Shown here in pieces: positions 1 through 48,220 of a stretch of 64,000 nucleotides of DNA. The stretch comes from Takakia lepidozioides (taxonomy: Eukaryota > Plantae > Bryophyta), in NCBI GenBank assembly GCA_030704615.1, contig CM060732.1, positions 79,608,001 through 79,672,000 on the forward strand. The letters are read 5' to 3'. Every line of letters begins with the position of its first letter. Within the stretch, counting starts at the first letter, position 1. A program made the position numbers and the translations under genes. The notes beneath the pieces are model-generated. The model was not told where the DNA came from, ran no database searches, and worked only from the letters and a program-made list of their open reading frames with translations.

Positions 1-870
1 ACATATTTCTATGCGCCACATCGCCTTGCTTACACACCGGTATCCTAAGTTGTTGCCTCTCTCAGCAATTCAAGGGTATCAAAAGGCCTTGCCAGCAGAC
101 ATTACCTTTTTGGGGGCGGATGATTTGGACCGGCATGGTGCCATTGACTTGGTGATAGCTGGATGGCCTTGCCAAGGACACTCTCCCGCGGGTCATGAAA
201 ATGGCTTGCATGATGCACGATCACATTTGTTTTGGGAGATGTTGAGAGTGTTGCGTGACTTGCAGACAAGGCGAGTGCAACCTCTAGCCTACATCTTGGA
301 GAATGTTCCTCTTATGGGGGACTCTCGGGCCAGGGTTATGGCCAGTGTGCATCAGGTGCGGTCTTGGATTGGATCACCGGTGCTATTGGATGCAGCAGCG
401 GTGGGATCACGCGCGCTCGACCTCGATTGTGGTGGACCAATCTTGCACCACCAGAGCTGCTCAAGAGAGCATATGATTCCATTCAATGGCTACCCAATCT
501 CACGATTGAGGGCATTTTGGACCAAGGGAGGCAACCACAGAGGGTGCAACATGATGACCGTCCACCTCTAGCAATGGTCAATCGAGTGGGGCAACCACGT
601 ACAGCCTTGCCTATGCTCATGAGTTTTCCCTCGTCTCATGTTTTTCGAGATAATGGTCTTGGGTTGATTTGGGACAGTGTGCTACAGCAATTGGTGGAGT
701 CCAATGCGGATGAGCATGAGCGGGCAATGGGGTTTGCCACGGGCACTACAGCTGTGCCAGCTTTATCAGAGGCATCACGACGCCAGGTGTTGGGTCAGGC
801 AATGGATCTAAATTTCTTGACATGGATAATTGGTTTGTGCATGGCTGAGCAACGGAGATTGCAAGCATTG
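1..870 (+). pseudogene. DNMT3-like C5 cytosine methyltransferase domain of the element A polyprotein (motif I lies upstream of the window)
   Basis: Motif IV GAIDLVIAGWPCQGHS (PC at 167-172), motif VI YILENVP (299-307), motif VIII LDAAAVGSRA[H]RPRLWWTNL (restored by adding 1 nt at 416/417), motif IX ERAMGF (718-735), motif X SRRQVLGQAMD (about 775-807). Motif order is not permuted. Confidence 0.88.
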
Positions 871-1371
871 ATAGCTACTTCTACACTCCCATTGGATGGT
901 GCATCCTCCCTGCCAACCGGGATGGTTGAGGCAGTGAGTGGGGGCGAGCACAAGATCGTGGGTTGGAAACACCCATGGCAGATGTGGGATGAGATGCGCA
1001 AAGAGAGAGTCATTGGATCTCTCAAGCAGCAATATGAGGAGTGGGGAGAGCCATACACTGAGGATCAGTTAGAAGCAAAGGTGACCAATGTTTTTGAAGA
1101 GGTTGAGAATGTTTCTTGCTCAGAGGATGTTCTCAAGGTGGCTATGGCGGAGCAAGTGGAGGCTACGCCACAATCAGATTGGGCGGACAAGGCCCAAGAG
1201 GTTGCTATCTAGCAACCAAATGATTCGTCTCCTACCTCCAAGCCTGGTGTACCCAAGGTTGCAGTCACTGAGGACAATTGGGAACTAGATGTTGGACCTA
1301 CAATCACCGGAGGAGAGAGACGGAGGATCCAGCAATTTCTAAGGGCTTATAGAAATTGCTTTGCCTTCGGT

Positions 1372-3000
1372 TTGAAGGATTTGGGGAGTTTGAAGGGTCA
1401 GGAGATTCGTATTGATTTGGCAAGTGACACGCCAATCTTTCGAAGGCCCTACCGGTTTAGTGACATAGAGAGGTCATTGATCCAGTCACGGACTATGGAG
1501 TTGTTCGAAGCTGGATTGGTGGAATTGTCAGGCGGGGAGTATGCCTCGGCAACGGTGATGCCAGCTAAGAAGGATATCTATGGCAATTGGACAGAAAGAA
1601 GGATGTGTGGGGACTATCGTCCTGTGAACCGTCAGACTAAGTCCGATAGATATGTCATGCCAACTCCAGAGGAGATCTTTGATGCCATTAGGCATGCAAA
1701 GGTGTTTAGCACATTGGACTTGCGATCCGGTTACCACCAGTTGCCAATCAAAGAGGCTGACAAGCAAAAGATGACATTATGGGGGATTGACCAACATGGG
1801 AAGGATTGCTTGTACCAATGGCGGTTCTTACCGTTTGAGCTGAAGAATGCTCCTACAGAGTTTCAGAGGGTCATGGATAGGACTCTCATGGGGCTAGACT
1901 TCGTCCGGTGCTACATTGATGACATCATCGTCTTTAGTGCTACGGTTGAGGAGCATGAGAGACACCTTCAGGTGGTGTTTGAGCGCTTGGGAGCGCACGG
2001 GTTGAAATTGCACCCTGGGAAGTGCATGTTCTTCCACAACCAGATTGAGTATCTGGGCCACATGATATACCCTGGAGGATTGGGTGTTCAAAAGACGAAG
2101 GTGGAGGCCATTGCATGCATTCCACGCCCCATAGATGTTAGTAGAGTTCGTGCTTTCATGGGGTTGGCAAACTACTATCGACGGTTTGTCAAGGGATTTA
2201 GCAGCATTGCAAAGGCTCTTACCAAGTTGACCAAGGTGGGTCAGGAGTGGCAATGGGAGGAGGAACAGGAGGAAACCTTTGAGGAACTCAAGGCTCGATT
2301 GACTTCTGCACCTATTCTGAGGCGGCCTATTCGGGGGCGGCCTTTCCAGCTACATATGGATTGGAGTATGTTGGGGATTGGAGCAGTGCTCACACAGGTG
2401 GATGATGAGGGATGAGAGTTCGTAGTGGCATATGCTAGCCGCTCGAACAATGATGCCGAGGCGAAGTATAGTTCATATGAAGTGGAGTGTCTAGATGCGG
2501 TATGGGCAGTGGCACATTTCAGATGCTACCTCTATGGCAATCTCTTCACCCTTGTCACGGATCACCAACCATTGAAGTGGTTGATGGAGTCAGACAAGTT
2601 TACAGGGAAGCTTGCACGGTGGGCACTTATGCTTCAAGAGTACGACTTCCAGGTGGTGCATCGAGCCGGTATTGTCAATCGGGATGCAGATGGATTGAGT
2701 CGTAATCCATGCACGAGCGAGCATGATGATACTGGAGCTCGGTGGCATGGTGAGACAGATGAGGAGATGGTGCCAGGATGGCATGCATCTGCCTTTTTGT
2801 GCATCCTAGTAATGGGAGCTCAAGCTGGTCCATCCCATAGCATTGGTCAAGTAGATGGTATGCATGATGATCCGGAGATCAGTGAGGAGCTTGGTGGTGC
2901 TAGGGATGTGCATGAAAATGCAGCAGTGTTGGCCTACCTTTGTACATGAGAGACAACAGCCAGTGTGACTGCTAAGGAAAGAGATCGGATCCTACAATGA
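1372..3000 (+). pseudogene. pol: Gypsy reverse transcriptase and RNase H of element A
   Basis: ORFs 1372-2415 and 2425-2949 are in the same frame as ORF 364-1212. They are separated only by single stops at 1210 (TAG), 2413, 2947 and 2998 (TGA). YIDD RT motif present; no integrase seen. Confidence 0.92.
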
Positions 3001-4573
3001 GGGTGTTCCATACCCAGACTTTGGATTTACACAGAAGGTCCGACAGCGGCCCCGCGATCTTGGCGAAATTTCTCAAAAACTTCCGGTAATAGGAGGCGAG
3101 TCCTAGGAAGGATCGCACTCCCGGGACCGAAGTCGGAGGCTCCCAGTCCAAGATTGCCCTCACCTTCCTGTCATCCATTCAAATCCCATCCTGTGTAATC
3201 ACATGCCTCAGGAACTCCACTTTTGTGACCCCGAATTTGCACTTTGAAGCTTTGGCATACAGCTTCCCTTCTCGCAATTTCTGGAACACCCTTTTGAGGT
3301 ACTCCAGGTGCTCCTCCTTTGTTTTTGAATACACCAAGATGTCGTCGATGTACAAGATCACAAAGTCGTCCAACCACTCCTGGAAGAGGTTGTTCATCAG
3401 CGTGCTAAAGGTCGCGGGTGCATTGGTGAGCCCAAAAGGCATCACCAAGAATTCATATGAACCATACCTCGTCCTGCACGCGGTCTTCTCCTCATCTCCT
3501 TCCGCCACTCGAATTTGATGATAGCCGGAGCGCAGATCGATCCGGCTGAAAAACTTCGCTCCTGCCAACCGATCAAAAAGGTCGTCGATCCTTGGCAAAA
3601 GGTACCGGTTTTTGATAGTCACCTTATTCAGAGCCCTGTAATCGACACACATCCGCAGCGTCCCATCCTTCTTGTCTGCAAATAGCACCGGGGCTCCGTA
3701 AGGTGACTTACTCGGCCGGATGTACCCCTTTGACATTAGATCCTTGAGCTGAGTCTTCAATTTGACCAACTCTCTGTGGCTCAACCGGTAGGGCGCCTTG
3801 GCAGGCGGTTCCGATCCCGGTATCACCTCAATCTTGTGGTCAACTCCTCTTCGCGGTGGCAAGCCGCTTGGCAAATCCTCCGGCATCACATCATGGTATT
3901 TCTCCAAAATCCCCTTGATCCAATCTGGGCTCAGCTCTCCATCGCCTTCTCCATTCACTTCTCTAATGTAAAGCAAAAACTGGGGCTCGTGTGCCTCCTC
4001 CACGGCCCACTCCCTTGCTGACAGAAGGTTTATTCGCCCTCCCACGGATTTGGGCGTTTCCGACACTCGTAAGACCTCGCCACCATTCCCACATGGCAGC
4101 GTGACTACTCTCTTGCGGCCATCTATGACCGCTCCGGATTTGCTCAAAAAGGTCATCCCCAAAATGAGATCCACTCCATCGATCTCGTAGATGGTGAAGT
4201 TCTCACGTCCCTCCCAACTCCCCAGTTGAAGAGGAACATCGAACGCCAACCTTGTCGCCAGTTGTGGTTCTCCTTTGGCAGAACGCACCTCAATAGAGGC
4301 CCCCACGTCACTTGTCGGGAGTCCCAACTTTTGCGCCGCCGCCGGCGTCATGAAGGAGTGCGACGCTCCTGTGTCCACCAACAACGACACGTTAGTTCCG
4401 GATATTATCCCATCCACAAACAATAAGTGACTCCCTTTACGCAATGCGCCAGTTTCCTGATACAACTCACAAGAATAGTTGCCTACCTTGCAAGTCCTGG
4501 CGACCACCGCTTCCACCAAGTGACTGATGGTATCTTCCGACAGCTCCGTGGTTGCCCGAGTCATGTTCAATTG
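3001..4573 (-). pseudogene. pol: Pol of element B (aspartic protease plus RT), truncated
   Basis: [53 protein letters not shown]; in-frame TGA at 3179-3181, then SFLGLASYYRKF; ends at the junction near 3000. Confidence 0.92.
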
Positions 4574-5695
4574 TCAGGGTTTCGTGCACTTCTTGGCCAT
4601 GTGCCCGGGCTCTCCGCAATTGAAACATACTCCATCAAAGGTCGCATTCTGTCCGCCATAAGCCGCTCCACCCGCTTTTCCTTTCGAAGCACCGGGTGCC
4701 GCCTTGACGTGTGAAGGCCCTCCCTTCGATTTCCACGTGCCATTGTCGCCGCGTGGCCTATCCCACTTCTTTTCCGGTCGGAAGGAGTCACCTTCCCGCC
4801 GGCTCTTATTGTGGTTCAGCTCCGTACGGCCTTGTCTTTCACCCCTAGGGACATCCGAGAAACATTCAGCCCTCTCAATTGCCTCGTTCAAAGTCTTAGG
4901 TGGCTTCTCCTCCAACTTTCGCTTGGCCCATGGGGCCAATCCTGCCACAAAGTTGAAGACCATTTCTGGTTTCGCCATATCCGCGACTTCGAGCAACAGC
5001 ACATTGAAAGCCTGGACATATCCCCGAACGTCATCTGTTTGCTTCAAATTCCTCATCTTGTCCCGGGCAAGCCAGGACGCGTTGAGGGGCACAAACTGTC
5101 GCTTCATCAATTCCTTGAATCCACTCCAGTTCAAGGTTTCCGGACTTGGACCTCGGTCTTGAAGGCGTTTCTGCCACCATTGTTGAGCATAGCCCCTCAA
5201 ATAGATGGGAGCCACTTCCACCCGATCCTCGTCACTCAACTTGGCCGCCCGGAAGTACTGCTCTAGCTCCAAGAGCCAGGTGTTGAGTGCCTTCCGATTT
5301 TGGACGCCCTCGAAGGTGCCGGGTTCCTTAGGCTTCACCTTAAACTTTGCCTTAGTGGAAGCGGCATTAGCGGCCTTCAACACGTCTTTCAACGTCCCGC
5401 CAAACTGTGCCAACAACCCTTCCCAAAAGGCTGCCGGCATGGGAGGCATCTGTTGGTTTGTCGGAGCTCTCAAGGATTCCTCGGGCTCCGACTCCTCGGA
5501 TTCCTCCCGCTCTTGAGCGGCCTCGTTTTCAGAAACATGCATCGCTTTCTCAAACGGCCGCCTCGGTGACACGTCGCCCCCATCGGGCTCACCAGGATCA
5601 TCATCTTTTGGGCCGTTCCGCTTTCGCTTTGGCTTGCCTGACCCCATGATGAGGCCAATCCCAATCGCGTACTGAACTTTAAGCTCTGATACCAA
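4574..5695 (-). CDS. gag: Gag of element B (retrotransposon gag domain plus CCHC zinc knuckle)
   Basis: 373-aa ORF containing KEPGTFEG...WL.ELEQYF, YLRGYAQQWW, LKQTDDVRGYVQAF and the C-terminal CFNCGEPGHMAKKC. Confidence 0.9.
   Translation of the reverse strand: MVSELKVQYAIGIGLIMGSGKPKRKRNGPKDDDPGEPDGGDVSPRRPFEKAMHVSENEAAQEREESEESEPEESLRAPTNQQMPPMPAAFWEGLLAQFGGTLKDVLKAANAASTKAKFKVKPKEPGTFEGVQNRKALNTWLLELEQYFRAAKLSDEDRVEVAPIYLRGYAQQWWQKRLQDRGPSPETLNWSGFKELMKRQFVPLNASWLARDKMRNLKQTDDVRGYVQAFNVLLLEVADMAKPEMVFNFVAGLAPWAKRKLEEKPPKTLNEAIERAECFSDVPRGERQGRTELNHNKSRREGDSFRPEKKWDRPRGDNGTWKSKGGPSHVKAAPGASKGKAGGAAYGGQNATFDGVCFNCGEPGHMAKKCTKP
5683..5694 (-). promoter_or_regulatory. Primer-binding site complementary to the tRNA-iMet 3' end (element B)
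   Basis: Minus strand reads TGGTATCAGAGC, 2 nt after the LTR terminal CA at 5697. Confidence 0.93.
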
Positions 5696-5696
5696 G

Positions 5697-6422
5697 TGTC
5701 GCGCACCTCACTTCGGTAAGCTCCCCTTCAAGTCATAGTTACTCGCTTTAATGCGCGTGCCTCACTCCCAACCTGGCCGTCGGGCCAACTCGGAGCTTCG
5801 GCTGCTCACCGGGACATAACGGTCCCCCTTCGCTCTCCCAAAAGACCCTCCACCTATTTGGGCCTAGTGGAATTCCCTTTGGTAGATGGCAGTCCGGAAC
5901 AGCTCCCCACTCTTTGGTCGCTTTCCGGCTCGCTCGCTTATTCACTAGTTTTTTGACACCAACGGGCTTCCACCGTTCTCGGGGTTACTACTCCCCTTAT
6001 ATATACTTCTGTAGCTGTCCGCGGGGGTTTCACAACCAGCCATGCCATTTTATGGTGAACCACCACGAAGACCCTCGACTCCCGGTGGTGAGTCGCGGTG
6101 AGTTTTGTCCCACTCACCACGGCCCCATTGGGCCGTGATGAGTCCCAAGACTCCCCACGACTCCCACCACGAGGTCTCCACCCCATGGTGAGTCCTATGC
6201 CACCCCCACTAAGTCCCGCTAAGCTACCACCACCCCTTGTGGAGCCACCCCACCGCAACCCGGTGTGCGGGGCTCCACCTAGTGAGCGCCTCCGCTTCCC
6301 TGAGTGCCTTGGGCACTCAAGGGTGCTTCAGCCCCCCATACCTATCGCTGCCGCTGCCCCCACCACAGGGGCAGCCCCTCATGTGCCCCGACCCCCTGCC
6401 CTCAAGGCAAAGGGCCGCGACA
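5697..6422 (-). repeat. 5' LTR of element B (726 bp)
   Basis: Bounded by the 7-bp inverted termini TGTCGCG (5697) and CGCGACA (6422), adjacent to the PBS; a TATA-like TATATAA lies on the minus strand near 6000. Confidence 0.85.
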
Positions 6423-6532
6423 TGGTGTGTGACAAATGCTCAAGGGGGTGGCACATGGGATGCTTGACAACGCCACTTGAGGAGGTTCCTAGTGGAGAAT
6501 GGTTGTGTCCACGATGCCTTGGACATAGGTAG
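6423..6532 (+). pseudogene. C-terminal half of a PHD finger, probably the end of the element A polyprotein
   Basis: VCDKCSRGWHMGCLTTPLEEVPSGEWLCPRC fits the C3-C4, H-C and C7-C8 ligands of C4HC3; it starts exactly at the outer edge of LTR B. Confidence 0.8.
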
Positions 6533-6790
6533 TGGGCATGACAATGGTGGAATTGACAAGTGATCCAAGGTCTAGCTTGTAGGAGCTCAACGCCATGGAT
6601 ACTCAATTGAAGATCATGGATTGCAAGTAGGTGATTAACGATGGGGCTCTCGTTGCACCCGACCTCTTGATCCATATACTTTAAAAAATTGGGACATGTG
6701 CGATTGAAGACCAAGCGATGATCTTATTGAGATGAATACTTGTCAGCTTTCCGGTGTTAGAGGGACCTAATCACCGGCTATGGGGGCGAT

Positions 6791-7249
6791 TGTGGCATAG
6801 CTTTCTAAGATTGTGTGCTTAGAATGTATGGTGGACAGTGATGTATGTTGTGGCACGATGCTTAGGTGCACGACAGCTGTCATGGTTTTAGTCATGGTTA
6901 ACTAGAATTACCTACTTCTAGTTAACTATGACATTTTGGATATTTATATTTGTATTTTGTGTGTTGGGACTTCATTTGGTCTCACATGCCAAGTGAGGTA
7001 TCAAACCTCACTTGGGACATGGGGATGGGTTTTCCCCTTGTGAGCGTTGAGGAGGGCTCATCTTCTTGTAGTTGAGCCTGCATGAGCCTCTCTCACCTCC
7101 ATAGCTCTAAGTATTGAGAGGGAGTGTGTTGAGGGCTTTGTAGGGTGGATTCCCTTAGCAAGGGTGCCCTTGGCTTGACTTAGTTTATGTGATTGAGTGG
7201 ATTCATGAGTGGAGTGTTTCCCTTGTGTTCACTTTCATTATCCGACACA
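6791..7249 (+). repeat. Candidate 3' LTR of element A
   Basis: Purine-rich ATGGGGGCGA(T) is followed by TGTG at 6791, and the segment ends in CACA at 7249. The partner LTR is not in the window. Confidence 0.45.
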
Positions 7250-16800: not shown

Positions 16801-19800
16801 AACAGTACATAATTTCTGGGATTATAGTAGCGTAAAATAATTGCGGATGTGGTATGGACGTTGTAGTCATGGAAAAATTTGCAGCGTAGCATTTAATTTT
16901 GATTCCAGTTTTGTGAGGATGTATAAGCAAGCTGACAGAAAGTTCTACCTGCCACAAACTCGCTACAGAATATGGCATAAGCACACTTGGGGGGTGTATG
17001 GGCAACAGTTTTTGAAAAGGTTGCTAGAATTGCTGTGCGAGGACTTTGGGCGCAGCGCTCACAGTTGGGTCTAGTTGGAGCTCACATCAATGTGTTCACT
17101 GGGGAATGGACCCATAAGGTAAGATTATTCTTAGGAGTATGGGCAGAGGGAGATGAACATGTAGTGACGGATTTAAAAGAAAGACATACAGACATGATTA
17201 TACTTTGGACTTTGGCCGTGTTCCCAAAGACCCCTAGCAGGAAACAGGGGTAAGGGTGTCCACTACTTGACGGCTTGCTTGCCAATGGAAACGGTTTGGA
17301 TTTTGGCCTTCCAAATCTGTTTGTCATAGCAAACAGATGAATTGGAGCAACGAACTGAATGAACGGTTACAGTTGCAGTTTCTCTGGTAATTATAAGAAA
17401 TGTACCCAATTCTCCTTCTTCCCATCACACCCCACTCTCCCTTTCCTCTCTGTTTCTGTTTGCTGCTCAAATGTAGGCTTCCCGTCCTGAGTTTAAATTT
17501 CAGTCTAGTACCGAGAGTGGGTAGGCCCATGAGGTCATCCATGATGTCTTTCCCCATGTCACAGACTGGAAACAAGTTCAGGGAAGTTTTCTGCCTAACT
17601 TCATTTCATCAGACAATTTCCTGGCAACAGATTGCAGAGAGAGAGATTGTACTCATAAGACATTGTTTGCCGTAGCCTTGTGGCCATTGACCCCGCGCCC
17701 AATTTGAACGGAACATAAAGGGACAGAAACTACCTTTGTCAGGGGCTGACGCCGGTAGTATGATTTACCTTGGAATAAACAGTTGATCCGAGATTTCCAG
17801 ATATCCTCCAGAAATCCCTTCACACAAGCATCAATCTGATGTGTGTGATTTGCCCAATAGCTAGACCCCAAAAGGGCCTGGGCTTTTGGCTCAGCCTCAA
17901 GATTTTCAAAGTTGTTAAGCAGAGGTACAGGCACAATTTCCTTGGGATGCCCACACAACGGGCACTTACAATCCCCCTTTCCTCTCTGCGACTCTTTGTT
18001 GTTCAAAGGTAGGCTACCCGCCCTGAGTTTGAATTTCAGTCTAGTGCCGAGGGTGGGTAGACCCTTGAGGTCATGCCTCACCCATGTCACAGACTGGAAA
18101 CAGGTTCAGGGAAGTTTTCAGCCTAACTTCATTTTCTTCAGACAATTTCCTGGCAATAGACATGGCTTCGGAAACTTCAGCTTCTAAGCCAGATTTATCC
18201 AGCACGGTCATGGCTAGTGCAGAGAGAGAGAGATTGTACTCATAAGACGTTTGCCGTAGCCTTGTGGCCATTGACCCCGCGCCCAGTTTGAGCGGGAACA
18301 AAAGGGACAGAACCTACCTCTGTCAGGGGCTGACGTTGGTAGTAAGACTTACCTCCATATATAGAATTAATCCGGGTTTTCCAGATATCCTCTAGAAATC
18401 CCTTCACACAAGCATCAATCTGCTGTGTGTGATTTGCCCAAAAACTAGGCCTCAGGAGGGCCTGGGCTTTTGGCTCAGCCTCGAGACTTTCAAAGTTGGT
18501 AAACAGGGGTACAGGCACAATACCCTTAAGAGATTTGAAGAGAGCGTCTCTTTGGTGAGAGAACCCCGGACAGTGTATCAGAAAATGAATACTGTCTTCA
18601 GATTGCCCACACAACGGGCAATCGCACTCTCCCTTTCCTCTCTGCTTCTGTTTGCTGTTCAAAGGTAGGCTTCCTGCCCTGAGTTTAAATTTCAGTCTAG
18701 TGCCGAGAGTGGGTAGACCCTTGAGGTCATCCAAGATGTCCTCCCCCATGTCACAGACTGGAAACAAGTTCAGGGAAGTTTTCTGCCTAACTTCATTTTC
18801 ATCAGACAATCTCATGGCAACAGACATGGCTGAGGACACTACAGCCTCTAAGTCAGATTTATCCAGCAGGGTCAAGACTTGCGGATCCAGGTCCAGGTCC
18901 TTGAGGATCTCTTCTACTCTCTTCTGCCAGGACTTAGCCTGTTTGACAGGGTGGTCCTGTTTCCAAGATATAGAGTCGATTAACTTAGGATATCTGGTGT
19001 TGGGCATATGTTGCAGCTGACCCCACCATCTGACCTTGAATTCATCTCGTCGGGAGCTTAAGGACGGAATGCCAAACTCACCCCGAACAGCCACATTGGC
19101 TGTTTTGGAGCATGCTGATATACACTCCTTAAGCACCCCCACTTGAATGGATTCTAGAGACTTAGCCTGGTTGGAGTTATCAACCCATATAGCAGATCCG
19201 TACTCCAAGGCAGGTCTAATAACGCGACAAAGCATGGTTTTCTTAACCTCAGAGTTGACCCCTCTGCAGTGGAAAAATTTAGTGAGCCCCAGAGCTTTGC
19301 CCTTGCCAGTTTGAACAACTTTCCGGATATGTGCATCCCAATTACAATTGGAGGAGAACTCAACGCCCAGGTAAGTGTAGGAAGGGAGGACCGGGATCTC
19401 TTGGCTACCCCACTGCCACTTAAGATCACTTCCTCCCTCTCCTCTGTCGTTGAATGCTACCACTGCACATTTGCTGACATTAGCCTCTAGCCCCCAAAGA
19501 TCAAAGTATCTCTTCGCGCAATCAATCAACTCCTGGAGATTGGTTGGAGTCTCCCCTATGCCTGCGAAGTCATCCGCAAACATAAGGGCTGGTATGGTGG
19601 TATCACCCACCCTTAACTCAAATCCCTCACTTTCCACATCCTCGAGGAGTTGATTGATGAAAACATTAAAGAGCAGAGGGGAGAGAGTACATCCTTGAGC
19701 TACACCTTGGTCTATGTCAAAGAAGTTGGACTTCTGTCCGTTAACAATGACACAGCTTTTGGTGTGAGCATACAAGTTGTGGACAACTCTCCACATCTTT

Positions 19801-22800
19801 CCCGTGATCCCACAAGACCAGAGGCGGAACCATAGGCCATCTCTCCACACTGTGTCATAAGCCTTTTTGACATCCAGGAAAAGACATAAGTGGGTTTCCC
19901 TTCTTTTTTCCTTCCCTGGATAATCTGGCTTAGAGTGAAGATATGATCCACACAGCCCCTGTTTCGCCGAAAGCCAGCTTGGCCTTCGTGGAAACAACCT
20001 CTAGACTCCAGATCAACCTCGAGACGAGTACTTATAACTCTGCAGAATGTCTTGCCAACAGCATTGAGGAGCGTGATGCCATGGTAGTTCCCCGGTTCTT
20101 CTCTGTCACCCTTCTTGTATGGATTGACAATGACCCCCTGTCGCCAGCGAAAGGGGATCATTTCAGTCTTCCAGATAAGGTTAAAGAGGAGAACTAGGGC
20201 CTCTATCATGGGATCGCCACCGTGCTTGATAAGCTCGTTGACAATACCATCAGGTCCACCAGCTTTATATCCATTTAAATGTTCAATTGCTTCCACAATC
20301 TCAGAAGAACTAATGGGAGCATTATAAGCCATTGAAATATACTCTCCAGTTCATCAGGGCTGTTTTGAATCATAGGAACAGTTTTTCCAACTGTGTCCCT
20401 CCATTCAGCAGAAGACCCCTCACTGTTAGACCTAGAAGTTCTGCCAAGGATACTGTAGTGAGTTTCAAAGGTTTTGACAATGTCAACCGATGAAGTCACC
20501 ACTGCACCTTTAGTAGTCTTCAGCGCTTGTACTTGCTGACCGTTTTTCGGCTTGTACAAACGTTGAAGGGCCAACCAGAATTTCTTGTCATTACCATGGT
20601 GGTTTGAGTTTATTTCACTGTATAACTTGTCCCAGTATAATTTCTTCTGAGACCTAACAAGCTGATTGATATCTTTACGGAGCTGGTTGTACCTCGTCCA
20701 CAATTCTCTGTTGGTTTCCAAATTGCAGCACTCTTTATAGAGGGCTTGTCTCTCAGCTATCTTGAGTTTAATCTCATTAGTCCACCAATTAACTGCTCTA
20801 CCGCAGACAATTAGTTTCCTCCCAATGATCTTGTCATCTACGGAGGAAACGAAACTCTCCCAAGAGTCCACTGCTCTTTCGACTTCATTTCTTGCGTTAA
20901 CAGAGCGTGACTGAAGTTCTTGGAGCGATTGGACAAAATGAGGGAGAACCTCTTGCAAGGCCTGGACGTACTCAGCCTTGACCTCCTCATTGTGGAATTT
21001 TTCTATGCGCCACTTCCGAATCGAACGTTTCACAGATCTCTTGGTGGTGGGAAAACACCTTTTGATCTCAGTCCAAACCAGGAAGTGGTCAGAGGTACCA
21101 ATATCAGTTCTGTCGATCAACACATTGGCACACTGGGGGAACAAAATTTTGTCCATTATGATATAGTCCACAATAGAGAGAGAGAGAGAAAGAGAGAGAA
21201 AGAGTACCTCAGTGTGACCCAGATGGAATTGAGAGTTAAGGGATGGAAAGGAGCAACTGATGTTCAGTGCAGTGCAAGAGTTGCTGGCTCTCTAAGAATA
21301 GTGTTTGTGGATGTTTGCGTTGGAAATGATGTAATAGGATGCAGGCATTGGCACCAGCATAGATTCTTTCTACGAGTACCTGCTGAAGGTGAGCTCTCAT
21401 CCATGTCTTCTAAAATGATCTGATGCTTACATCAAAGTGTTATGCTTTTGGTGCATGATCTCAGTTTTTTTCGTTTTCCTTGTGACAATTTTTTATCTGG
21501 TCTGCCTTCTTTTCAATTAAAGAACAGACCCAAAATAAACATGTCTGAGAAGCTGTTCAAGAACTCCTCGGCCATCCACTTTGATAGAAAGTTACTGTTG
21601 AGAACGCTCTTTTGTTCTGCATAGATGTAGGTTATCTGAGCAGGCAAACTCACAATATTTTGAGAACAACTTTACTGTTTTAAGGTTAGACTTGCACCTT
21701 AGCCTGTGGAATGATGTGTTTGAAATTTGTTTGTAGGCATACCTTCTCTTGGGTCAAGAAGAGTACCTTTACATATTCAAGGAGGCTTATAAATCTGTCA
21801 TGCGCTATCTCTACAATGATCCCTGGTAAGATGCAAACTTGTCTCCACTGCCTGAGTACAATGATATGTAGCCATAATATGGTGTGCTCACAGCCGTAAC
21901 CTCGTCATGGACGAGATGTACGAAAACTTTCATATATATATAATTAAAGGGAAGGCCTCATCGGGATCACGTCATATTATCGGAGTTGATGTGACAGTAA
22001 CATTGCCCACTTGGTAATTTCAGAACTCATGTGACATTATGCCTTGCGAATTATCAAGGCCCTCAAAAGAATTGAAGCCTCTCACTCCTCAACACAGGAT
22101 CTTGCTTTAAACCCGTAAAGTGTCTCCACCATTATTGAGTGGCAGAACTTGCATTAGAAAACTGTAACCGACTTTAGCAACAGCAACTGGTGGACAACTT
22201 CACCTGCAAGCCTGGTCTGTATTACTCGTACACAGGAGAATTGACTATCCATTAGATGTTCATGGCACTAATTTTCTCAGCCTTCAGATTAGTACAGATC
22301 TGTCAAAACATCATTCATGGTTTTTGGTTTGTTCTTACTGCTAGGTATTTGGAAGTGAACATGAACTCTGCAGTTGTTGTGTGGCCACTTTTCAACAGTC
22401 TCCAAGCTTTTTGGCCTGGCCTCCAGGTGTGTATTTAGTTTCAACACAGAGTAAATGTAGGTGCATTTTAAGGTAGCCTAAAGTCTCAGACCGGCTTTCG
22501 TGTTGAGCACTTGGAGACAATGCAGTGCACGACAATCAACTCATCGTGTAGACGGCTCTTGAGATAGGACTGATACCAAAATGGGGTTGGTGCAACTACA
22601 ACAGGTTTTATGATATTGGAAGTCTACTATTGGAAGTCTATGTTTGTCAAGGAAATGTAAGCTGTATGGAGTCCGATTTGTTCATTCCTAATCACTGTGC
22701 TATATATGTGTATGGAGTAGGTGTTGGCAGGAGATGTGGAGCCAGCAGTGCGCACTCACAAAGCATTTTTTGCTGTGTGGAAACGATTTGGATTCACACC

Positions 22801-36600: not shown

Positions 36601-39600
36601 TCTGCAGATAGATAGAAAAAAGGAAGAAAGGGAAAAAGAAAGCAGAGAGGAACAACAATTTTATTACGTCTGCAGGAGGCCTACAGAGAAATGGTACTTT
36701 ATAACGTCCGCAGAAGCGATTGTCTAAGAGTCAACACCTTATGCAGGTACACTGCCAAGTATTTCTGATCCTCGTATTGGATCGTCCACAGTTTGTTCTA
36801 ATAAATAGAACTTCACATAAAGAAGAGAGCAAAGTTATTGTACCTCCACAAAATGGAAAAGGCAGTGAGCTAGAAATTGACAGATGATTTTCTTCTGGCA
36901 TGCCCAGGGATACAACATTCACAAATAATACCTGGTCCCTAAACTGATCCAAGAGGGTACTGCCAATAGCCCCATGACCAACAATGCCAACAGCCAGGGT
37001 TGCCTTGGAGAGATAGAAGCGCGAATGTACAGCCTTGAGAGCCTTGATGGAGTCTTCCTGGTTCACCACTATCGTGATGTTGTATTCTGAACAACCCTGA
37101 GCTATTGCCCTCACATTTATGTTGGCCTGACACCATACATGAAACAAACTTGGTATTGGTCACTGTGGCGCAGAGTCTCATTGATGAGCAGGTCTATCTA
37201 CTCAATTTCTGCATCACCTTGTCGAGTAGGAATTTGAGTACTGAGACCTAAACTGTCTAGGCAAATGCAAAAGATAGGGGCAACTGCCAATACATCTGCA
37301 TGTATTTTCCAAGCCCCATAGAAGAATGCGAAAGTCGGAAGTACCTTGGCAAGTGCAGTGAAGAGGCTGGCACTGACACCCGGTGTACTAGCCATCCGTT
37401 GCCCAACAGCTGCTAATATGCTGCAGTTGCGTACCACCTCCACCTACATAGCCACCAAAACAATTTGCTTACGATGACCCTCCACATGCCATCTTTCTCT
37501 CTGTCTCGCAATCTCAGCACATGTAGATCTCAGCCCCTTTTCTGATCTTTGCCCTGCCTGGCCTCTGGACTGTGTCCAAATGGTGTGCCCTCCATGTCAT
37601 GAGTAATGGTAAGCATGCAGGCACTAAGCAGTCTCACATTGCTTAGTTCTAGAGCATGATCTCTCACTCAAGATTTGAGCCATAGGGCATAGTACCCGTG
37701 AAAGCCGCCCGGCATCCAACGCCCTTCTAAATTTGCTCTCCAGAGCTTTCGCCACAATGGTAACTTCTTTCTCAGGAACTGCAAAGCAGACTGAGTGCTC
37801 ACTACTGGCCTGCATCCAACTCAAATTGAAATGTGCTTAACATAAGGACATCGGTTGGAGAAGCAAACGTCGGTATGTGTAAGCCTGCAAAATCATCAAC
37901 TGTGAGTTCTACATTTGCAGGTTAACTTTGGACATTAGTGACTTTGAGAAGGGCCTCAATCCACACAACTGACACAAACTGAACCAGCTTATAACCTGAA
38001 CCTTCATATCCAAAGAGTAACAGTTTTCATAGGCTTCGTACACTACTGCAAAGTAGGAATACTCTACATTAAACTCATGCAGACTCCAGGCAACAGTCTC
38101 CCAACAAGAATAGACGATGCTATAGCTCAGCTCTGAACCCTTTTGAGGCTAAGAATATTTCCTGAGATTGAAGACTCATCTTCAAATGATGAAATGCAAT
38201 CATTTGGACCTCAATCATTGTATATTTATGTAGAACAGTCTTTCAATTATCTAACACCTGACTCAAATTGTAACCAAGGATCTTACTTAGAACTCCAGAC
38301 AAACATATATGCCAAGGAAAATCCCAATGGGGAAAATAATATTCACATTGCCCTTCACGGGAAAGTGATCAGAATTATGGTTGACGTCCGAAGGTTGCCT
38401 GCAACCCAGACCAGGAAGCTTGAGCCCTCGGGGGTAAAGAGTGTGACAAATCAAACCACAAAATACCTGTGAGATCATAACTACATTGGCACCCACATCT
38501 TTAACTGCTTCAAAGATATCACTGGCTGTTCCTGGAACCCCTGCCATGCCTGTCCTGCCCCATTGTAGAATCCAACACAACCCCTCACAATGTTATGGGA
38601 GCACCTCATTTGTAGGTTTGGGAAACTGCTTATTGGATGGCAACCTATACTACATAAGTGCAGAAGTGGGAAAACTATGGCAATGCTTGCTGGTGGGGGT
38701 TCACCTCTTACATTAAAACTGCATTTTCAAACAAATAAAAATGAGTAGCCCCTGAATCTATCCTATGCACTGGAGAAAGGGAAGGACATCAAGAGAGCGT
38801 ACATTCACAAAGACTGAAGAATTAACAGAGGTGAGATAACAAACCCTTCGACATTCACAAGGGCAATATTGTCAATGGTGGCGAACCCTTTGACCACTGA
38901 ATCCGCTCCCTTGCAAGAGACTGGTTGGGCATCGCCTGGTCCTGGAAAAGGGGATCTCCCAATCTTGGTCCCGGGAGCTGCAACATTGAAAACATTGCGG
39001 ATGGTGACCGGAATATTGTACTTCATCACAGGGATTGTTGTTCGTGGATGCAGCACATTTGCGCCAAAGTAGGACTGCCCCGATTCAGGCAACAACAAGT
39101 ATATCAGTCTACAGGTTTAATCTGGTGAAAAACAATCCTCTGCTTTATGCGAGAAATCCTTATCATATTGTATTAATCTTTTCATGTTTTGCATCTTTTG
39201 CATGCAAACGAAACAGTCGCATGTGTGCAGCTGTCTGTGAGAGAAAATATAGAAAGAAAGAAATGTACATGTACATGGGAGGCCCAAGAGAGAGCCTGAG
39301 AGAGCTAACCTGCTCCTGGCAAAGAAGATGGACAACAAATTGATACAACTCAGGGTTCGACCCTTGCTCAAGAATCCCTCCCTTACATATCCTTCCACTT
39401 CCAAAAAACTCTTACATATGATAATGAGATCTTACAGCTGAAACCAATAACCAGAAAGAGAAAAGTGACCAGCCAAAAGAAAATTACCATCTCCCAGGCC
39501 TCTTGGTATGAGAGGGTGCTCAGCACAACTGCTTCACTAACTGCCCCACCAATCAAGACAGACATTTTCATTATAGACGTCCAAGATTTGCGTCAATTTA

Positions 39601-42600
39601 CATTACATATCTAGACAACAAGACATACTTTCGAGGCTTCTCTGTCTTGGCAATTGTGTTTCTAATGGGATATACTTCCACAATCCAATTTGGTCTCATG
39701 GGCAATCCCAGACACAATATTACAAGAGATCTCCACAGGCTGAGCTAGCCACAAACAGCCCTGCAGGAGCAATGAAACAGTGTGTAGCTGTGTTTACTCT
39801 ATTTACACTTACAAAGGTCATGGAAGATTGAAATGTTCCTTGACAAAGGACTTTGACCCTCAGGAAATGCCATTCTTACTCATAAAGCTCATCCATAAAA
39901 CCAGTCTCACAGCCTCAGTGCCTAAAAATCAGCAAATACCTTGCTCGGGTTTTAAGCATATGGAAATTCTATTTCAGGACTTCATCTTGAGGATTTGGTC
40001 GGGTGGAGGAAGTCCAATATTTCCTGCAGACTAAGGCAGTAGCTGCCAAGATGAGGTCTCTATTGAATGTTCTTTTGCAAATAGCACAAACCAAAAGTTA
40101 TTGACCAAAACAGTCACCTGCCAAGGTATGCAGAAGACACCAGGATAATGAACCTGCTAATATCATCAATTCTCTCACAGCCGTGGCCAGATTAACAACA
40201 AAAAAGCTAAGCAAAAAATACTATCTCCCTTCCCCACATATACAGAATACGGGTCTATGCCACAGTACCTTTCCTTGGGTCAGCACTGAACACGCCATCA
40301 ACATCAGTCCAGATGGTGACCTTGCTAGCTTGGAAGAGGGCCCCCATGATGGCTGCTGAGAAGTCACTGCCATCGCGCTTCAATGTTGTGGGAATGTTGT
40401 CAGCAGTGCTTGCAATGAAACCGGTGGCGATAATTGTATCAGCAGGGAAGCGTGTGTACCACTGATCAAGTCTCTCTCCTGAGGCTTCTAAGTCAGGGTC
40501 TACTTGCTGTTTACTGGTTGGATTCACCACCAATACCTCTCTAGCATCCATCCAAACACACGGCAGGCCCCTCTGCAATGACACTGCATGCCCTAGTAAG
40601 CACTATGCTCTTCGTTTGTTGTCCTGTAAACACACGACCTGCTGCCTTGTACTTTGCAGGTACAATACGTTGTTGATAGATGCCAGATGAATTCGTACTC
40701 ACATGCATCCCTATGTATGGTATACACATTAGGTGGTCTTCTGTGGAGAAAATGGAGGATTTCGCATCATACTTTGAGTCACTATATGGAATACCTTGCC
40801 ATGTTTGAGGAGCTTCTAGTGAAACATGAGGTCCAAATCCATGGAATCTGTACCTTCCTAACAGCAGCAGCAAGCATCTGTGCTGACCAGAGTTCACCAT
40901 GCCCAGCCACAAAGTCTGCAAATGGCTCAGTGGCATGCCCAGCTGCATCAGAGAACAACAGAAAAGATTAAAAAACCCAGAGAGTAACAGTCCTAGCACC
41001 AGCCTAGAACCTCTCCCAAAAAATTACGAAGTAATGTCCTTGACAAATCTGAGTAACCCAAATTGTACTTGAATACACACCAATGGAAATGGCGCGAAGC
41101 ATTGCCCGAAGATTTTGCACGTCCTCTTCCAAGGTAGCCAAAAATTTGGACAGATCTTCACCTTCCTCCAGAAGAGCAATCGCAGTGTCCCTATGCTTCT
41201 CAAAGACATTATCCAAGGCAGCAAGATAGGAACCATCACGGAATTGCGCTCTTTCCAACAAATCATACATCATGTCTGTCACCTTGGACATAGCAGACAC
41301 GACCACTACCTTGCGGGCTGAAGGATCATCCACAATGATCTTGGCTACATTTTTTATCCTTTCACAGGAGCCGACGCAAGTTCCACCAAATTTATGCACT
41401 GACCATGTCTCCCCACGAGGTAAAATTTGCCTCTTGTTTTTCTCCTGTGTGACCACATCCACATCCACATCTGCAATGCAAGGGTTCTCAATGTCAGAAG
41501 TCGTGAGAAAACTTGGCACTGGGTGTTTAAGCAAAGATTATGAAGGTTGGAGTCCACATTTTCAAGTACCTTAAGCTACATGACACATACATGCATCTGA
41601 AAGTAGATCACACTTGTAGTTGAAACGAGATATTTAAACATGAGGATATAGATAAAGTGCCAGGCTGCAAGGCAAGAAGAAAAATGCTATCCTATTTCAA
41701 AGTACGATACATGTTTAGGAACATAGGATAGACCTGTAAGAGCTGCCTGAATACCCATCCTGCGGCTTCTATTGATTCCATCAACCGTGGGTCTGTAAAC
41801 ATAGAACTCAGAAAGTTACAAGTGCACTCACAGCTGTGATCAGTTAGGCTGCTTAACATCAGCTGTAAATGATAAGACGAAACCTGGCAAGACAAGTCAA
41901 CTCAGGTTTGAACATGAAATAACTGATTGATTCTGGCAAAAGGATAAACCCTGAAGGAGGGTTTTTGTTGATCCTTCTCCTTGAGCGATTTCATGCAGTG
42001 CAAGAACCAGAACATTCTGCAGTATGCAGTCAAGAAACTGGCAGGGGAGGATGCATTCTTGTCATTCCCATACTTTTCCATCATAAATCCCCAGAAGCAG
42101 AGTTCAGTGGGATGTAGGAAAGGCAGAGAACTTACTCTTTCAATGAACATCAAAACTTGGTGGGGAACAAAAAGATCAGGGCCGACAAGTGTGGGATCCA
42201 GTTAGTTTAAAGCATCCACGTTTGGGCATTTGCACCCACCCACAGGCATTGCCCAAATAATCGCTGAATAACTCACATGGTCAAACCTGTGAAAGACTAC
42301 AGTCCAGCTCCTAAATCTCCCATCATACTTGACAGCCCAGCAAAATCACAGTCTATGATTATTTGGCTCGGTGTTTCCATGGATGCGTTCAGAGAATCAC
42401 AGCGTTTTTAGTGGCTGAGTTCAACAGTGTCGCTTTATATGACCAGTAATTTGAGCAATGGCTGCCAGGCTCCCCGCCCTACAAACTGTCAAGGGTCCCC
42501 TTCCATACTTTCACGAATACCGCCACAATCTTTACTTCTGCGGAATTTCCCCAAAGCAGCTGCCATACCCCTCCACAATCCATATTTCTTCTCAATAAAC

Positions 42601-43457: not shown

Positions 43458-45067
43458 TTCCTCCTAGTGCACCATTCTCCTGCCTCTAAGATACTAAGGT
43501 TTTGTTGGAGAAAGTATACTCGGTAAAGCTTGTTCGCGAGGGGGAATGAACTTTGGTGAGCCTGATGGGACTTTAGATTTCTGCTGTAAACAGTTAAGAG
43601 TTAGTTCACAAGAGGGCTTATGTATTGTGGAACACTCATTCATTGGGGATCCTGGCCTAAAGGGCTCCCCGAAAATTCCATCGAGGCCGGGAGGCCGAGG
43701 TGGAGTATGACGGGAGTCCGACGGGTGGACGACTGGTTCCCATCCGTAATCCACATTCTTAGTCATTCTTGGAAAATCCACTTGGGTATGCCGCCCAGGA
43801 ATCCCCGACTGGATAACAAAGTAATCTACAGCTGAAATGGACCACGTTGGAGGAAAAAGTATGCAGTCCCACACTTCTGGCCTCACCATATCATGGGAGT
43901 ATCCAGGCAATGGATTCCACCAGGTGAGCTGCTCATTATCACTAAAAGTACCAGCTTGTCAAACTGCATCTTCATCGAAATAGAAGGACAGAGAGTGATA
44001 AGCCTTCGCATATGAGCACAGATAAGGCAAGCCTGACAGCCTGTTTAGCTGATAGTTGAACAGAAGTAAATTTCAGTCTATGAATACGAGATTGTTTTGT
44101 GATGTTCTATATCTGCAGCTTATGCATCACATGAGAGCCTCTTAGAACTACAACTTGCTCTCAATTAAGCAATGTTTCAGAAGATTACCAAAAAGCTAAT
44201 TGCCATGGCACAAGTCTGAGAACAGTCTAGTCTGAGAACAGTCTGGAAAGATATCAGACTGCAGTTTTGATCCTCGTGTGCTCTCTGAAACTCGAAGTTG
44301 AAAGTGAGTATGAGTCACGGTGAGCCCGTTTAGAGGGACAGCTGCCTTGTTATGCACAGCTGTAAGTTTGGACATATTCCTGTAGTGCTACATACTCTTC
44401 TTGGAAGAGAGACAAAGGTGCTGGAAGTGGAGGTGTTGTAAATGAAAGATCTACATTCAACGAATTATCTGCAACTTAACTACAGAGAGGAAGCAAAATA
44501 CACCAGAAGTCTTAACCTCACTATTTCTAATTGTAGTTCTTGGAGAGGAGGTTTTTCAATGGTTTCTGGGTTCAAAAATATTCTAGGAGCTTTAGTGGTT
44601 TTGGCCAGGTCTGTGTGAGGCCGTGTTTGGAGCTATGTTGCTCTACTACTCACCTATGGTTTTCACAGAAATGTCCAAGATCACCAGACTTCAACCATAA
44701 TAACAACAGAAAGGAGGCCCTTTGGATTCGGAGTTGGTCAAACCCTCCTTGGGTGAAAGCAGAGCTAGTTGCCCTGACAGAAGGACGAGCACAGTCTTCC
44801 CATCTCAATATACGGCATGGATCTTCAGGTCAAGAATCAAATGGGTAATTATTTTGACAATGATTCAACGGCACTAAGTCCAATAGAAAGAACGAGTGCA
44901 GTTTATTCCCATAATAGACCACCTCCATGGTTTTACAGATCTGATGATATGCAAGCGAGAAAATTGTTCTCATGAAAAATTTGCTTAGGGAGTATCCTGG
45001 GGCTTTGAGATCAAATGGGTGAGATTGAGTGTAAGGATTTGTAAGTAAGAGTTTTGAGTCATGCAGG

Positions 45068-48000
45068 ATGGCAAGGTTGAATCAGGCACACTCTCTTGCT
45101 GAACATCAGACCGGGCACAAAGGTAGCACCAGCACCAGCACCACTACTTTGGAAAGAGGAGCAAGAGAGGGACTGAACAAGAGTTCTTTTGAAACTTGTA
45201 GGAATGTGAGGGCACTATGTAAGGCAGGACGAGTAAGAGAGGCGCTACAAATTTTGAACCGACGTGGCACTCTAGCAGATTCAAATACCTATGTCTGTCT
45301 CTTGCAGGAGTGCATTAAAGCGAAAGACCTGGAAGAGGGAAAGCAGGTGCATGCACACATCATATATAGTGGATTTGAGCCAAACCTCTTTCTCCTCAAC
45401 ACACTTATCAACATGTATGCCAAGTGTGGGAGTGTTGTGGATGCCCACCAAGTGTTTGATGGAATGCCCGAACGAGATATGTTTACATGGAACATAATGA
45501 TAACAGGATATGCCAAGCATGGGCGTGGTAGGGAGGCTTTCAAGATCTATGAGCGAATGCAACAAGAAGGGGTGACACCCAGCAGGGTCACATTCATTGG
45601 TGTTGTCAATGCATGTGCCTGCCTAGGACTCTTGGAGAAGGGCAAACAAGTCCATGCTGAAATCATCGAAGCTGGAATTGTGCCAGATCTGATTCTGGAG
45701 ACTGCCCTTGCTGACATGTATGCCAAATGTGGGAGCCTGACGGATGCGTGTCGTGTGTTTGACAATATGGCTCAACGAAATGTGGTCTCATGGAACACCA
45801 TGATCTTAGGATATGCTCGGCATGGGTGTGGTAGGGAGGCTTTCAAAACCTATGACCAAATGCAACAGGAAGGGGTAAGGCCCAACAAAGTCACATTTAT
45901 TTGCATTCTGAATGCGTGTACTAACCTAAGGGTCCTAAAAAAGGGGAAAGAGGTCCATGCTGATATCATCAAAGAGGAAATTGCGCCAGATATCATTCTT
46001 GAGACTGCCCTAGCTGACATGTATGCCAAATGTGGGAGCCTGAAGGATGCACGTCAGGTGTTTGACAAAATGGCTCAACGAAATGTGGTCTCATGGAATA
46101 CAATGATTGCAGGATATGCAAAGCATGGCTGTGGTAGGGAGGCTTTCGAGATCTACGAGCAAATGATAGGGAAAGGTGTGACACCCGACAAGGTCACGTT
46201 CATTTGTATACTGAGTGCATGTGCCAGCCTACGAGCCCTGGAAAAGGGCAAAGAGGTCCATGCTGACATCATCAAAGCTGGCATTGCGCCAGATGTCATT
46301 CTGGAGAATACCCTTGCGGACATGTATGCCAAATGTGGGAGTGTTAAAGATGCACATCAAGTGTTTGACAGTATGGCTGAACGGAATGTGGTCTCCTGGA
46401 ATTCAATGATTGCAGGATATGCTGAGCATGGGAGTGGTACAGAGGCTTTGGAGATCTATGAGCAAATGAAACGGGAAGGGGTGACACCTGACAGGGTCAC
46501 ATTCACTTGTGCTCTCAATGTGTGTACTAGCTTAGGAGCCCTGGAAAAGGGTACAGTGGTACATGCTGACATCATCAAAGCTGGCATTGTGGCAGATATC
46601 ATTCTGGAGACTGCCCTTGCTGACATGTATGCCAAGTGTGGGAGCATAAATGATGCACGCCAAGTGTTTGACAATATGGCTAGACATGACGTAGTCTCAT
46701 GGAGTGCAATGATTGCAGGATATGCTGAGCATGGGTGTGGTAGAGAGGCATTCGAGATCTACAAGCAAATGATATGGAATGGGGGAACGCCAGATAAGGT
46801 CACATTCATTTCCGTTCTCAATGCGTGCGCCAGCCTGGGAGCCCTCGAAAAGGGTAGAGAGGTCCATGCTGACATGAGGAGGAGTGGGATTGCACCAGAT
46901 ATCATTCTGGAGACTGCCCTTCTGAACATGTATGCCAAATGTGGGAGCATGAAGGATGCCCATCAAGTGTTTGACACTATGTCTAATCGAGATGTGGTTT
47001 CATGGACTGTGATGATCGCAGGATATGCACAACATGGGTGTGGTTGGGATGCTTTCGATATCTACGAGAAAATGCAACAGCAAGGGGTGACACCCAACAG
47101 GGTCACATACATTTGCATTCTGACTGCATGTGCTAGCCTGGCAGCCTTGGACAAGGGCAAAGATGTTCATGCTCACATCAGCAGTAGTGAAATCGCTCCA
47201 GATATCGTCCTGGAGAATACCCTTGTTGACATGTATGCCAAATGTGGGAGCATAAAGGATGCACACAAAGTGTTTGACAAAATGTCTAAGCGAGATGTGA
47301 TATCATGGAATGTGATGATCACAGGATATGGTCAACATGGCTTCGGCAGGGAGGCCCTCAAACTATTTGAACAAATGCAGAAGGAAGGCTTGAAGCCAGA
47401 CAGTATCACTTTCACATCTCTTCTTTCTGCATGTAGCCATGTGGGTTTAGTGGATGAAGGCTGTCATTATTTTGATTCAATCAGTCAAGATCATGGGCTT
47501 ACTCCCACAATGGAGCATTTTGGCTGCATTGTGGACCTTCTTGGCCGCTCAGGCCAACTGCATGAGGCGGAGGACTTTGTTAACAAAATGCCAATCGAAC
47601 CAGGTGCTTCAGTATGGAGGGCCTTGCTTGCTGCCTGTCGAATTCACGGAGATGTAGATCTTGCAGAATGTGCGGCCAAGTGCCTTCTCAAGTGGGATCC
47701 ACAGCATGCAGCAACTTATGTGCTGCTCTCAAACATCTATGCTGCAGCTGGCAGGTGGGATGATAGAGCAAAGGTGAGGAAAATGATGGAGGACACAGGC
47801 GCGAAAAAGGAACCAGGGCGCAGCTGCATTGAGGTGGACAAGCAGGTGCATACATTCGTTGTAGAAGACAAATTGCATCCAAAAATTGACGAAATTCATG
47901 CTGAGCTCAAGAGATTGTATGGGCCTATGAAGGAAGCCGGGTATGTGCCTGACACGTGCTTTGTGTTGCATGACGTGGAGGAGGAGCAGAAGGAAACTTC

Positions 48001-48220
48001 TCTTTTCCACCACAGTGAGAAGCTGGCCATTGCTTTTGGGCTCATCAGCACACCCCCTGGCACATGCATCCGTATTATCAAGAACCTTCGGGTATGCGGT
48101 GACTGCCACACGGCCACCAAGTTCATCTCAAAGGTTGTTGGGCGAGTAGTTGTTGTAAGGGATGCCAGCCGATTTCATCACTTCCAGGATGGAGCTTGTT
48201 CTTGTGGGGATTACTGGTGA
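45068..48220 (+). CDS. PLS-class PPR protein with E and DYW deaminase domains (organellar C-to-U RNA editing factor)
   Basis: 1050-aa ORF with about 23 P/L/S motifs, PG box ([11 protein letters not shown]), HSEKLA, CGDCH and terminal CSCGDYW. Possible in-frame upstream exons at 43837-43923 and 44537-44844. Confidence 0.96.

Follow-up and report, generated by a model that had tools for sequence, protein, structure and literature searches.

Cytosine methyltransferases borne by retrotransposons have so far been reported for dinoflagellates and one charophyte alga. In the alga, Klebsormidium nitens, the element KnitGypsy-Dnmt3 has a Dnmt3 domain in its Pol open reading frame (ORF) together with DIRS-like repeats, and in the accessible text of its description the capture is regarded as an event peculiar to the lineage of K. 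nitens (de Mendoza et al. 2018, PMC5890265). Here we analyze a 64,000-nucleotide stretch of DNA from the bryophyte Takakia lepidozioides (contig CM060732.1, positions 79,608,001 to 79,672,000, hereafter the window), which begins within a dead, decayed copy of a Ty3/Gypsy element with a DNMT3-type methyltransferase (DNMT). The element represents a widespread land-plant branch of the Gypsy-DNMT3 lineage, now found also in mosses and liverworts, including Marchantia. Sequence comparison places the DNMT of its close relatives at the end of a Gag-protease-DNMT frame (ORF1), before a conserved stop codon. Readthrough of this codon likely yields the products of a second frame, ORF2, which encodes reverse transcriptase (RT), RNase H, integrase and, at its end, a PHD finger.

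The Takakia element shares with KnitGypsy-Dnmt3 an intronless, unpermuted Dnmt3 domain in a Ty3/Gypsy body, repeats arranged as A-coding-B-A-B, and purifying selection on the DNMT. It differs in host, a land plant instead of an alga, and in that its DNMT closes the Gag-protease frame before a conserved stop, whereas the algal domain lies in the Pol ORF. The available portion of the algal account gives no readthrough, PHD finger, self-priming, target duplication or integration model. A Klebsormidium RT (P0037, 46% identity) falls into the same RT group as the window element (98/98), with three outgroups only and with P0037 as a candidate for one of the published KnitGypsy copies; the locus closest to P0037, L053 (59%), has a DNMT. 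The dinoflagellate SymbioDIRS-Dnmt3 likewise combines a Dnmt3 domain with A-coding-B-A-B repeats, but, as far as the accessible text goes, it has a DIRS-type RT and a tyrosine recombinase (PMC5890265); the present family, by contrast, combines a Ty3/Gypsy RT with an rve integrase and is flanked by target duplications of 4 bp. Membership in the DIRS/Ngaro tyrosine-recombinase class is excluded by the rve/H2C2 integrase of the relatives, the 4-bp duplications and the TG...CA ends.

Among the lineages of REXdb, Phygy is similar in length (8.6 kb) and in its 4-bp duplications; it differs, in the accessible part of the source, in having a tRNA-Trp primer-binding site (PBS) and target sites of the form NCGN and in lacking any extra domain (Neumann et al. 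2019, PMC6317226). We reject membership in Phygy on PBS and target site: none of nine duplications is NCGN, and repeat A1 is followed by a self-complementary site and no tRNA PBS. Retand and Ogre resemble the family in often having one stop between GAG-PROT and RT. REXdb demanded paired long terminal repeats (LTRs) flanked by duplications (same source), a criterion that A-B-A-B elements would fail. According to the accessible part of a 2019 paper, land plants, for instance tracheophytes, lost these transposons and no longer have them (PMC6338049), and streptophyte cases are mentioned, citing the 2018 paper, in the accessible parts of 10.64898/2026.05.21.726589 and PMC12344493. The literature searched, with most subscription journals and Repbase outside its scope, contained no account of a land-plant DNMT3 Gypsy family, its readthrough or its ends; nothing on the family was found in the accessible text of PMC11194755, 10.1101/2021.11.30.470311, PMC6453930, 10.1101/2021.02.12.428880, PMC12885004 and PMC10508981.

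The methyltransferase and its family

An earlier note on this DNA, made from the letters of the first 3,000 nucleotides, described a Gypsy LTR retrotransposon with a DNMT3-like enzyme directly upstream of RT, and both identities hold. The best PDB match of the window RT is Ty3 RT (E 3e-52). Profile search revealed RVT_1 (E 9.6e-29) and RNase H in 1213-2412, RT_RNaseH in 2416-2946, and, as the note had proposed to check, PF00145 (E 1.2e-13) in frame 2 (2-568). The C-terminal half of the methyltransferase alone has no Pfam match; compared with Marchantia proteins, it reaches up to 66% identity (E 9e-56). By tblastn the window DNMT is 70% and 66% identical to the domain of the Marchantia protein P0002. 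The window begins at about residue 40 of the 325-residue domain, and motif I and the start of ORF1 lie upstream of it. Alignment with relatives gives the motif order I-IV-VI-VIII-X, i.e. unpermuted. Motif IV is intact, as previously read, and ENV (motif VI, 299-307), RPR (motif VIII, 418-426) and the C-terminal LGQAMD (790-807) follow (Table 1).

Table 1. Features of the methyltransferase-carrying element and of the insertion nested in it (window positions)
Feature	Position	Strand	Basis or remark
C5 methyltransferase of DNMT3 type, last ~285 residues of the 325-residue domain	5..861	+	PF00145, tblastn, alignment; ends ORF1
Motif IV GWPCQG with catalytic Cys	161..178	+	motif reading, alignment
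Non-conserved acidic linker closing ORF1	862..1209	+	sequence reading
In-frame stop TAG + CAACCA, predicted readthrough signal (UAG-CAR-YYA type)	1210..1218	+	conservation in relatives
5' part of ORF2: RT (YIDD 1912-1923), RNase H, linker	1213..2997	+	lost integrase; ends ~3000
Unrelated nested Ty3/Gypsy element	3001..6422	-	5' LTR 5697-6422 (TG...CA), gag, protease, RT; 3' half lost
Remainder of PHD finger and stop closing ORF2	6423..6532	+	PF00628 E 2e-9; 53% to PHD of P0015
Polypurine tract	6782..6788	+	place and sequence type as in relatives
Repeat B1, ending CACGACA	6789..6875	+	relatives; joint in run X1
Near-palindrome CACGACA-GC-TGTCATG at the B|A junction, where integrase is predicted to attach	6869..6884	+	relatives
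Repeat A2	6878..7242	+	then CGACA 7243-7247; depth falls after 7250

The class of the enzyme was examined with profiles and a structural model. A profile of 62 family domains matched DNMT3A at E 9e-27, DRM at 5e-14 and M.HhaI at 2.5e-9. The predicted structure of one relative's domain (predicted local distance difference test score 96.9) is nearest to DNMT3B (Z 29.0, root-mean-square deviation 2.7 over 271 aligned residues), followed by DNMT3A (Z 27.7) and M.MpeI (25.8). The catalytic Cys and Glu and two Arg (C95, E138, R178 and R180) are almost invariant in the 62 sequences. Profile ranking, fold and motif order thus agree with the DNMT3-like, unpermuted assignment made before, and on these comparisons the window methyltransferase is of this type. 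A host DNMT3 or DRM gene is excluded, since the relatives are intronless and have Gag and protease before the DNMT, and the motif order is unpermuted.

Relatives were picked by RT alone, the best 80 of 512 JGI contigs yielding 80 loci (L-numbers), and the presence of DNMT was scored only in the 52 loci with at least 1300 nt upstream of RT. DNMT was present in 49 of them, and the three misses are accounted for by one insertion and two internal deletions. Tens of distinct contigs of the same organism, from sequencing runs X1, X2, X5 and X6, also cover the DNMT part. A search with the C-terminal half retrieved 14 longer proteins, including ten of Marchantia polymorpha and one each of Calypogeia fissa and Sphagnum fallax. 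Most of them consist of a Gag with zinc knuckles, a DSG protease and then the DNMT, where Gag and protease were read from the sequence with weak Pfam support; the proteins are intronless in Marchantia, Calypogeia and Sphagnum. Relatives L009 and P0242 have the complete set of Ty3/Gypsy domains (Gag, protease, RT, RNase H and integrase), and rve and H2C2 integrase domains were identified in relatives. A Coleochaete transcript is 66% identical. The viral contigs searched contained one unrelated match only (29%). Among the sequencing runs listed as matching there was no RNA run, which we do not count as evidence.

In loci L043 and L044, repeat A is joined almost directly to the RT region by an internal deletion, and gag, protease and DNMT are gone.

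Trees of DNMT and RT were built for 28 elements and agree in their well-supported groups; the window element, Calypogeia, Marchantia and L019 group together in both (support 100). This congruence indicates that DNMT and RT descend jointly. Calculation of nonsynonymous and synonymous substitution rates (dN/dS), which the earlier note had suggested, gave ratios of about 0.12-0.13 for DNMT between subfamilies: 0.163/1.315 = 0.12 for L009/L011 (RT 0.06) and 0.267/2.02 = 0.13 for the window and L019, with dS near saturation. Judged by these ratios, DNMT is under purifying selection between subfamilies. Against this stand the near-saturated dS of most pairs and the dN/dS of about 0.9 of recent copies (L019/L028).

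Among the best 150 DNMT relatives in a representative library, DNMT follows RT in 51, many with a PHD finger, and precedes RT in one ORF in seven. In the DNMT tree and in the RT tree alike, a single branch separates the two layouts, a pattern that fits, but does not prove, one old capture of DNMT and a later move. The layout with DNMT after RT is a second architecture and extends to chlorophyte algae, as in a Scenedesmus pol protein (P0289) whose DNMT is flanked by RNase H and integrase.

A conserved stop codon before the reverse transcriptase

In the window, DNMT and RT-RNase H share one reading frame apart from a break at 416/417 and a TAG at 1210. The break, described previously as a 1-nt deletion, is a lesion of the window copy, because an alignment with unbroken relatives runs through it from one methyltransferase half into the other without loss and one extra base is present in other copies from the same organism (15 contigs of run X1, ten of X2, two of X5 and one of X6). 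The TAG is of a different nature. The earlier note had taken the DNMT for a part of Pol broken only by this codon; in this clade, however, the codon is a conserved one and marks the end of ORF1. Its origin as a C-to-T lesion is ruled out by the conservation across subfamilies.

Stop context was surveyed in 73 rows (72 of the 80 loci and the window; eight loci lack the junction). Of the 57 rows in the close clade, 49 (the window and 48 loci) have an in-frame stop followed by CAR-YY, placed 14-21 codons before the start of RT; 40 of these stops are TAG and nine TAA. In the remaining eight close-clade rows the motif is displaced by an indel or insertion (six), decayed (one) or deleted (one). Lesion stops, by comparison, have a context of the CAR-YY type in only 6 of 485 cases. 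When six representatives were aligned, TAGCA and two scattered bases alone were invariant in 69 columns. The layout is seen undisturbed in L009, where an ORF1 of 1369 codons is followed by TAG CAGTTA and an ORF2 of 1047 codons, with no other stop. The independent evidence for the stop comes from about four subfamilies, which are less than 80% identical to each other in RT.

UAG-CAR-YYA is the tobamovirus readthrough consensus (tobacco mosaic virus type, type I; accessible text of PMC3542737). The window sequence TAG CAA CCA matches it exactly, here in a nuclear retrotransposon, and so suggests readthrough of the same type. With the stop conserved in the close clade, the DNMT would be made with Gag, and the ORF2 enzymes likely via readthrough. 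RNA folds 3' of the stop showed no shared structure among five representatives.

Several observations weigh against this interpretation. A single subfamily, whose members are near-copies of each other, supplies most of the 49 rows; its context is CAACCC, which departs from CARYYA at the last base, and strict CARYYA occurs in seven rows only. No such stop is found in 16 distant-clade rows, so a DNMT-RT fusion also works; P0242 is a single ORF of 2811 residues, and DNMT shares the RT ORF also in P0027, P0028, P0031 and P0032. Finally, no contig of the same organism bridging DNMT and RT is among the differences listed (40 of 848).

In L053, which belongs to the Klebsormidium-like RT group, the DNMT ends in TGA-CGG, fitting the type II readthrough motif; this is one locus.

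Repeats, ends and integration

Gag, protease and integrase of the DNMT element are not in the window, and its A1 repeat lies outside it as well, so that the window displays B1-A2. A cut at about position 3000 took away the integrase, and TGA codons at 2413 (inside RNase H) and 2947 interrupt the RT frame. The previous list of lesions was right about 416/417 but lacked both TGA codons and the loss of integrase; the 3' portion of the DNMT element (6423-7247) had been missed as well. The unrelated Gypsy element on the opposite strand is bounded by loose contig ends at 3002/3003 and 6422/6423 in the sequencing runs, where other copies run on upstream of 6423 into PHD-coding sequence; because of the loose ends at 6422/6423, we place this insertion within the PHD finger of the DNMT element. 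The best PDB matches of the finger are CHD4, PHF12, PHF21A and KAT6A, several of which read unmethylated H3K4. The DNMT element itself reaches to about 7247, and CGACA at 7243-7247 may be all that is left of a B2 lost by deletion, namely its end. In the nested element, gag (4577-5707) and protease-RT (3182-4573) are in different frames and coverage is heavy in all four runs; its PBS is presumably of the tRNA-Met type.

The family was previously called an LTR retrotransposon. Its Gypsy membership stands; the ordinary two-LTR form does not, and no ordinary LTR pair is recognizable in the sequences of this family. Relatives are organized as A-coding-polypurine tract-B-A-B or A-coding-polypurine tract-B, and complete A-coding-B-A-B copies are present in L003, L026, L029 and L069, of which L026 and L029 are probably one insertion. 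B starts directly after the polypurine tract, and A stops directly before a self-complementary priming site. A2 joins B2 end to end in all seven close-clade loci shown, and run X1 contains the joint 7242 to 6789, i.e. an A-to-B join. The B|A junction, allowing up to two mismatches, is found in 18 related loci in the form CAYGACA-GC-TGTCAYG, and its halves are the two integrated ends back to back. Integrated ends are TG...CA; the 4-bp target duplications are exact in seven of nine two-ended loci and match at three of four positions in the other two. The A-coding-B-A-B ends, the duplications and the palindromic B|A junction are best explained if circular cDNA integrates.

Self-priming is known from Tf1/Sushi and Tcn1 (accessible text of PMC6317226). 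Here, 22 loci with A1 were compared, and in 10 of them a self-priming match of at least 10 nt is located at position 164-171 of A, ~30 nt behind the TATA box. The match differs in sequence between the two clades and was reached in two and three of 2000 shuffles (L007 and L069, respectively). On the opposite side, 12 of the 22 loci have no clear match, and A-coding-B copies could equally stem from B1/B2 recombination.

In L008, about 2800-2460 nt before RT, a lone full-length A repeat sits inside another copy, and the priming site that usually comes after A is missing there. A 42-bp imperfect palindrome is located at 6891-6932, near the start of repeat A.

Proposed mechanism, alternatives and neighboring genes

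The following life cycle would account for this anatomy. Readthrough at UAG-CAR-YYA would set a high ratio of ORF1 to ORF2 products, and protease would release the DNMT inside the particle. Reverse transcription would be self-primed, the bases after A pairing with A's own site ~30 nt behind its TATA box, and cDNA started from the polypurine tract would carry B+A as its LTR, as in standard Ty3/Gypsy reverse transcription. The cDNA would then circularize and integrase would cut it at the internal palindromic B|A site, a two-LTR circle being inserted as A-coding-B-A-B and a one-LTR circle as A-coding-B. The PHD finger may read histone H3 tails and steer insertion. The DNMT may methylate the cDNA, most likely at CG, such that a new copy would arrive resembling host repeat chromatin. 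To the chain as a whole, i.e. ORF1 as Gag-protease-DNMT, ORF2 by readthrough, and DNMT at a Gag-like level, packaged and methylating the element's own cDNA, we assign a probability of roughly 0.6.

The weakest step of the chain is the substrate of the DNMT. The CpG observed/expected ratio of the element (0.50) is lower than that of the nested Gypsy (0.85) but not lower than that of a host gene or a LINE in the window (0.37 and 0.40), and for this reason CpG depletion is uninformative on self-methylation. The same anatomy could serve a DNMT whose target, in the nucleus, is the new insertion or the DNA of the host, or one that binds nucleic acid without catalysis, which we regard as rather unlikely, though the strongest competitor. 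It would agree with the yeast experiments in the accessible text of PMC5890265, where the DNMT of KnitGypsy-Dnmt3 produced no methylation; human DNMT3B did not either, and the authors call the result inconclusive. The activity of the family DNMTs is a prediction, 61 of the 150 best distant relatives have WEC in place of WPC at motif IV, and the DNMT works from two polyprotein positions, so position does not fix its substrate. Catalysis and packaging are favored, on the other hand, by the near-invariance of the catalytic residues, by the related SymbioDIRS-Dnmt3 domains, which methylate CG in yeast (same source), and by the placement of the DNMT in the Gag frame.

It is improbable, in our estimate, that the stop is a plain ORF boundary, with ORF2 expressed from a spliced or second transcript or after reinitiation, and with modified strand transfers on linear cDNA as the source of the split repeats. 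Many ORF2 products do have a Met shortly after the stop, ORF2 is called as a complete ORF in a Coleochaete transcript assembly, and the largest subfamily deviates from CARYYA. Yet the frame is kept across the stop, TAG-CA is kept while its flanks diverge fully, no Met lies in the window between this stop and the RT start, and the repeat ends coincide exactly with the boundaries of polypurine tract and PBS, as a circle predicts. A fragment of a host DNMT3 captured once only, or an assembly error beside an ordinary Gypsy, would have been allowed by the location of the 5' part outside the window; the related loci have already refuted it. The arrangement recurs in the 49 of 52 relatives and in the intronless bryophyte proteins, DNMT and RT trees are congruent, and distinct contigs of the same organism cover the DNMT part. 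As the earlier note had supposed, the DNMT is a family trait and not a host gene.

A wider reading, which we hold only tentatively and at somewhat less than even odds, is that these elements form a green-plant-wide Gypsy lineage missed by LTR finders, in which circular cDNA is cut at a palindrome by a DDE integrase, DNMT3 is supplied at Gag dose by readthrough, copies arrive pre-methylated and are steered by the PHD finger, and which is alive or recently alive in model bryophytes, Marchantia among them. Circle integration is not the textbook LTR route and would explain why structure-based catalogues missed the lineage. The conserved stop would imply that the enzyme is wanted at the dose of a structural protein. 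Since Marchantia has mutants, methylomes and transformation, the question why a transposon keeps a silencing enzyme becomes testable. Unannotated DNMT copies also affect counts of DNA methyltransferases in bryophyte genomes.

Other features of the window were labeled by eye, except where matches are given. Fragments like those of a long interspersed nuclear element (LINE), with endonuclease and RT-like ORFs, are located at 17656-21291 (-). Exons of a bifunctional aspartokinase/homoserine dehydrogenase occupy 36734-41537 (-); the best named matches of one aspartokinase exon are from Sphagnum and Ceratodon (77%). A tree of two short exons sets the host apart from angiosperms and resolves its position no further; with the exon matches, this makes it a seed-free land plant. 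An intronless pentatricopeptide repeat (PPR) protein of 1061 codons that ends in DYW is encoded at 45035-48217 (+); PPR-DYW proteins are typical organellar RNA-editing factors.

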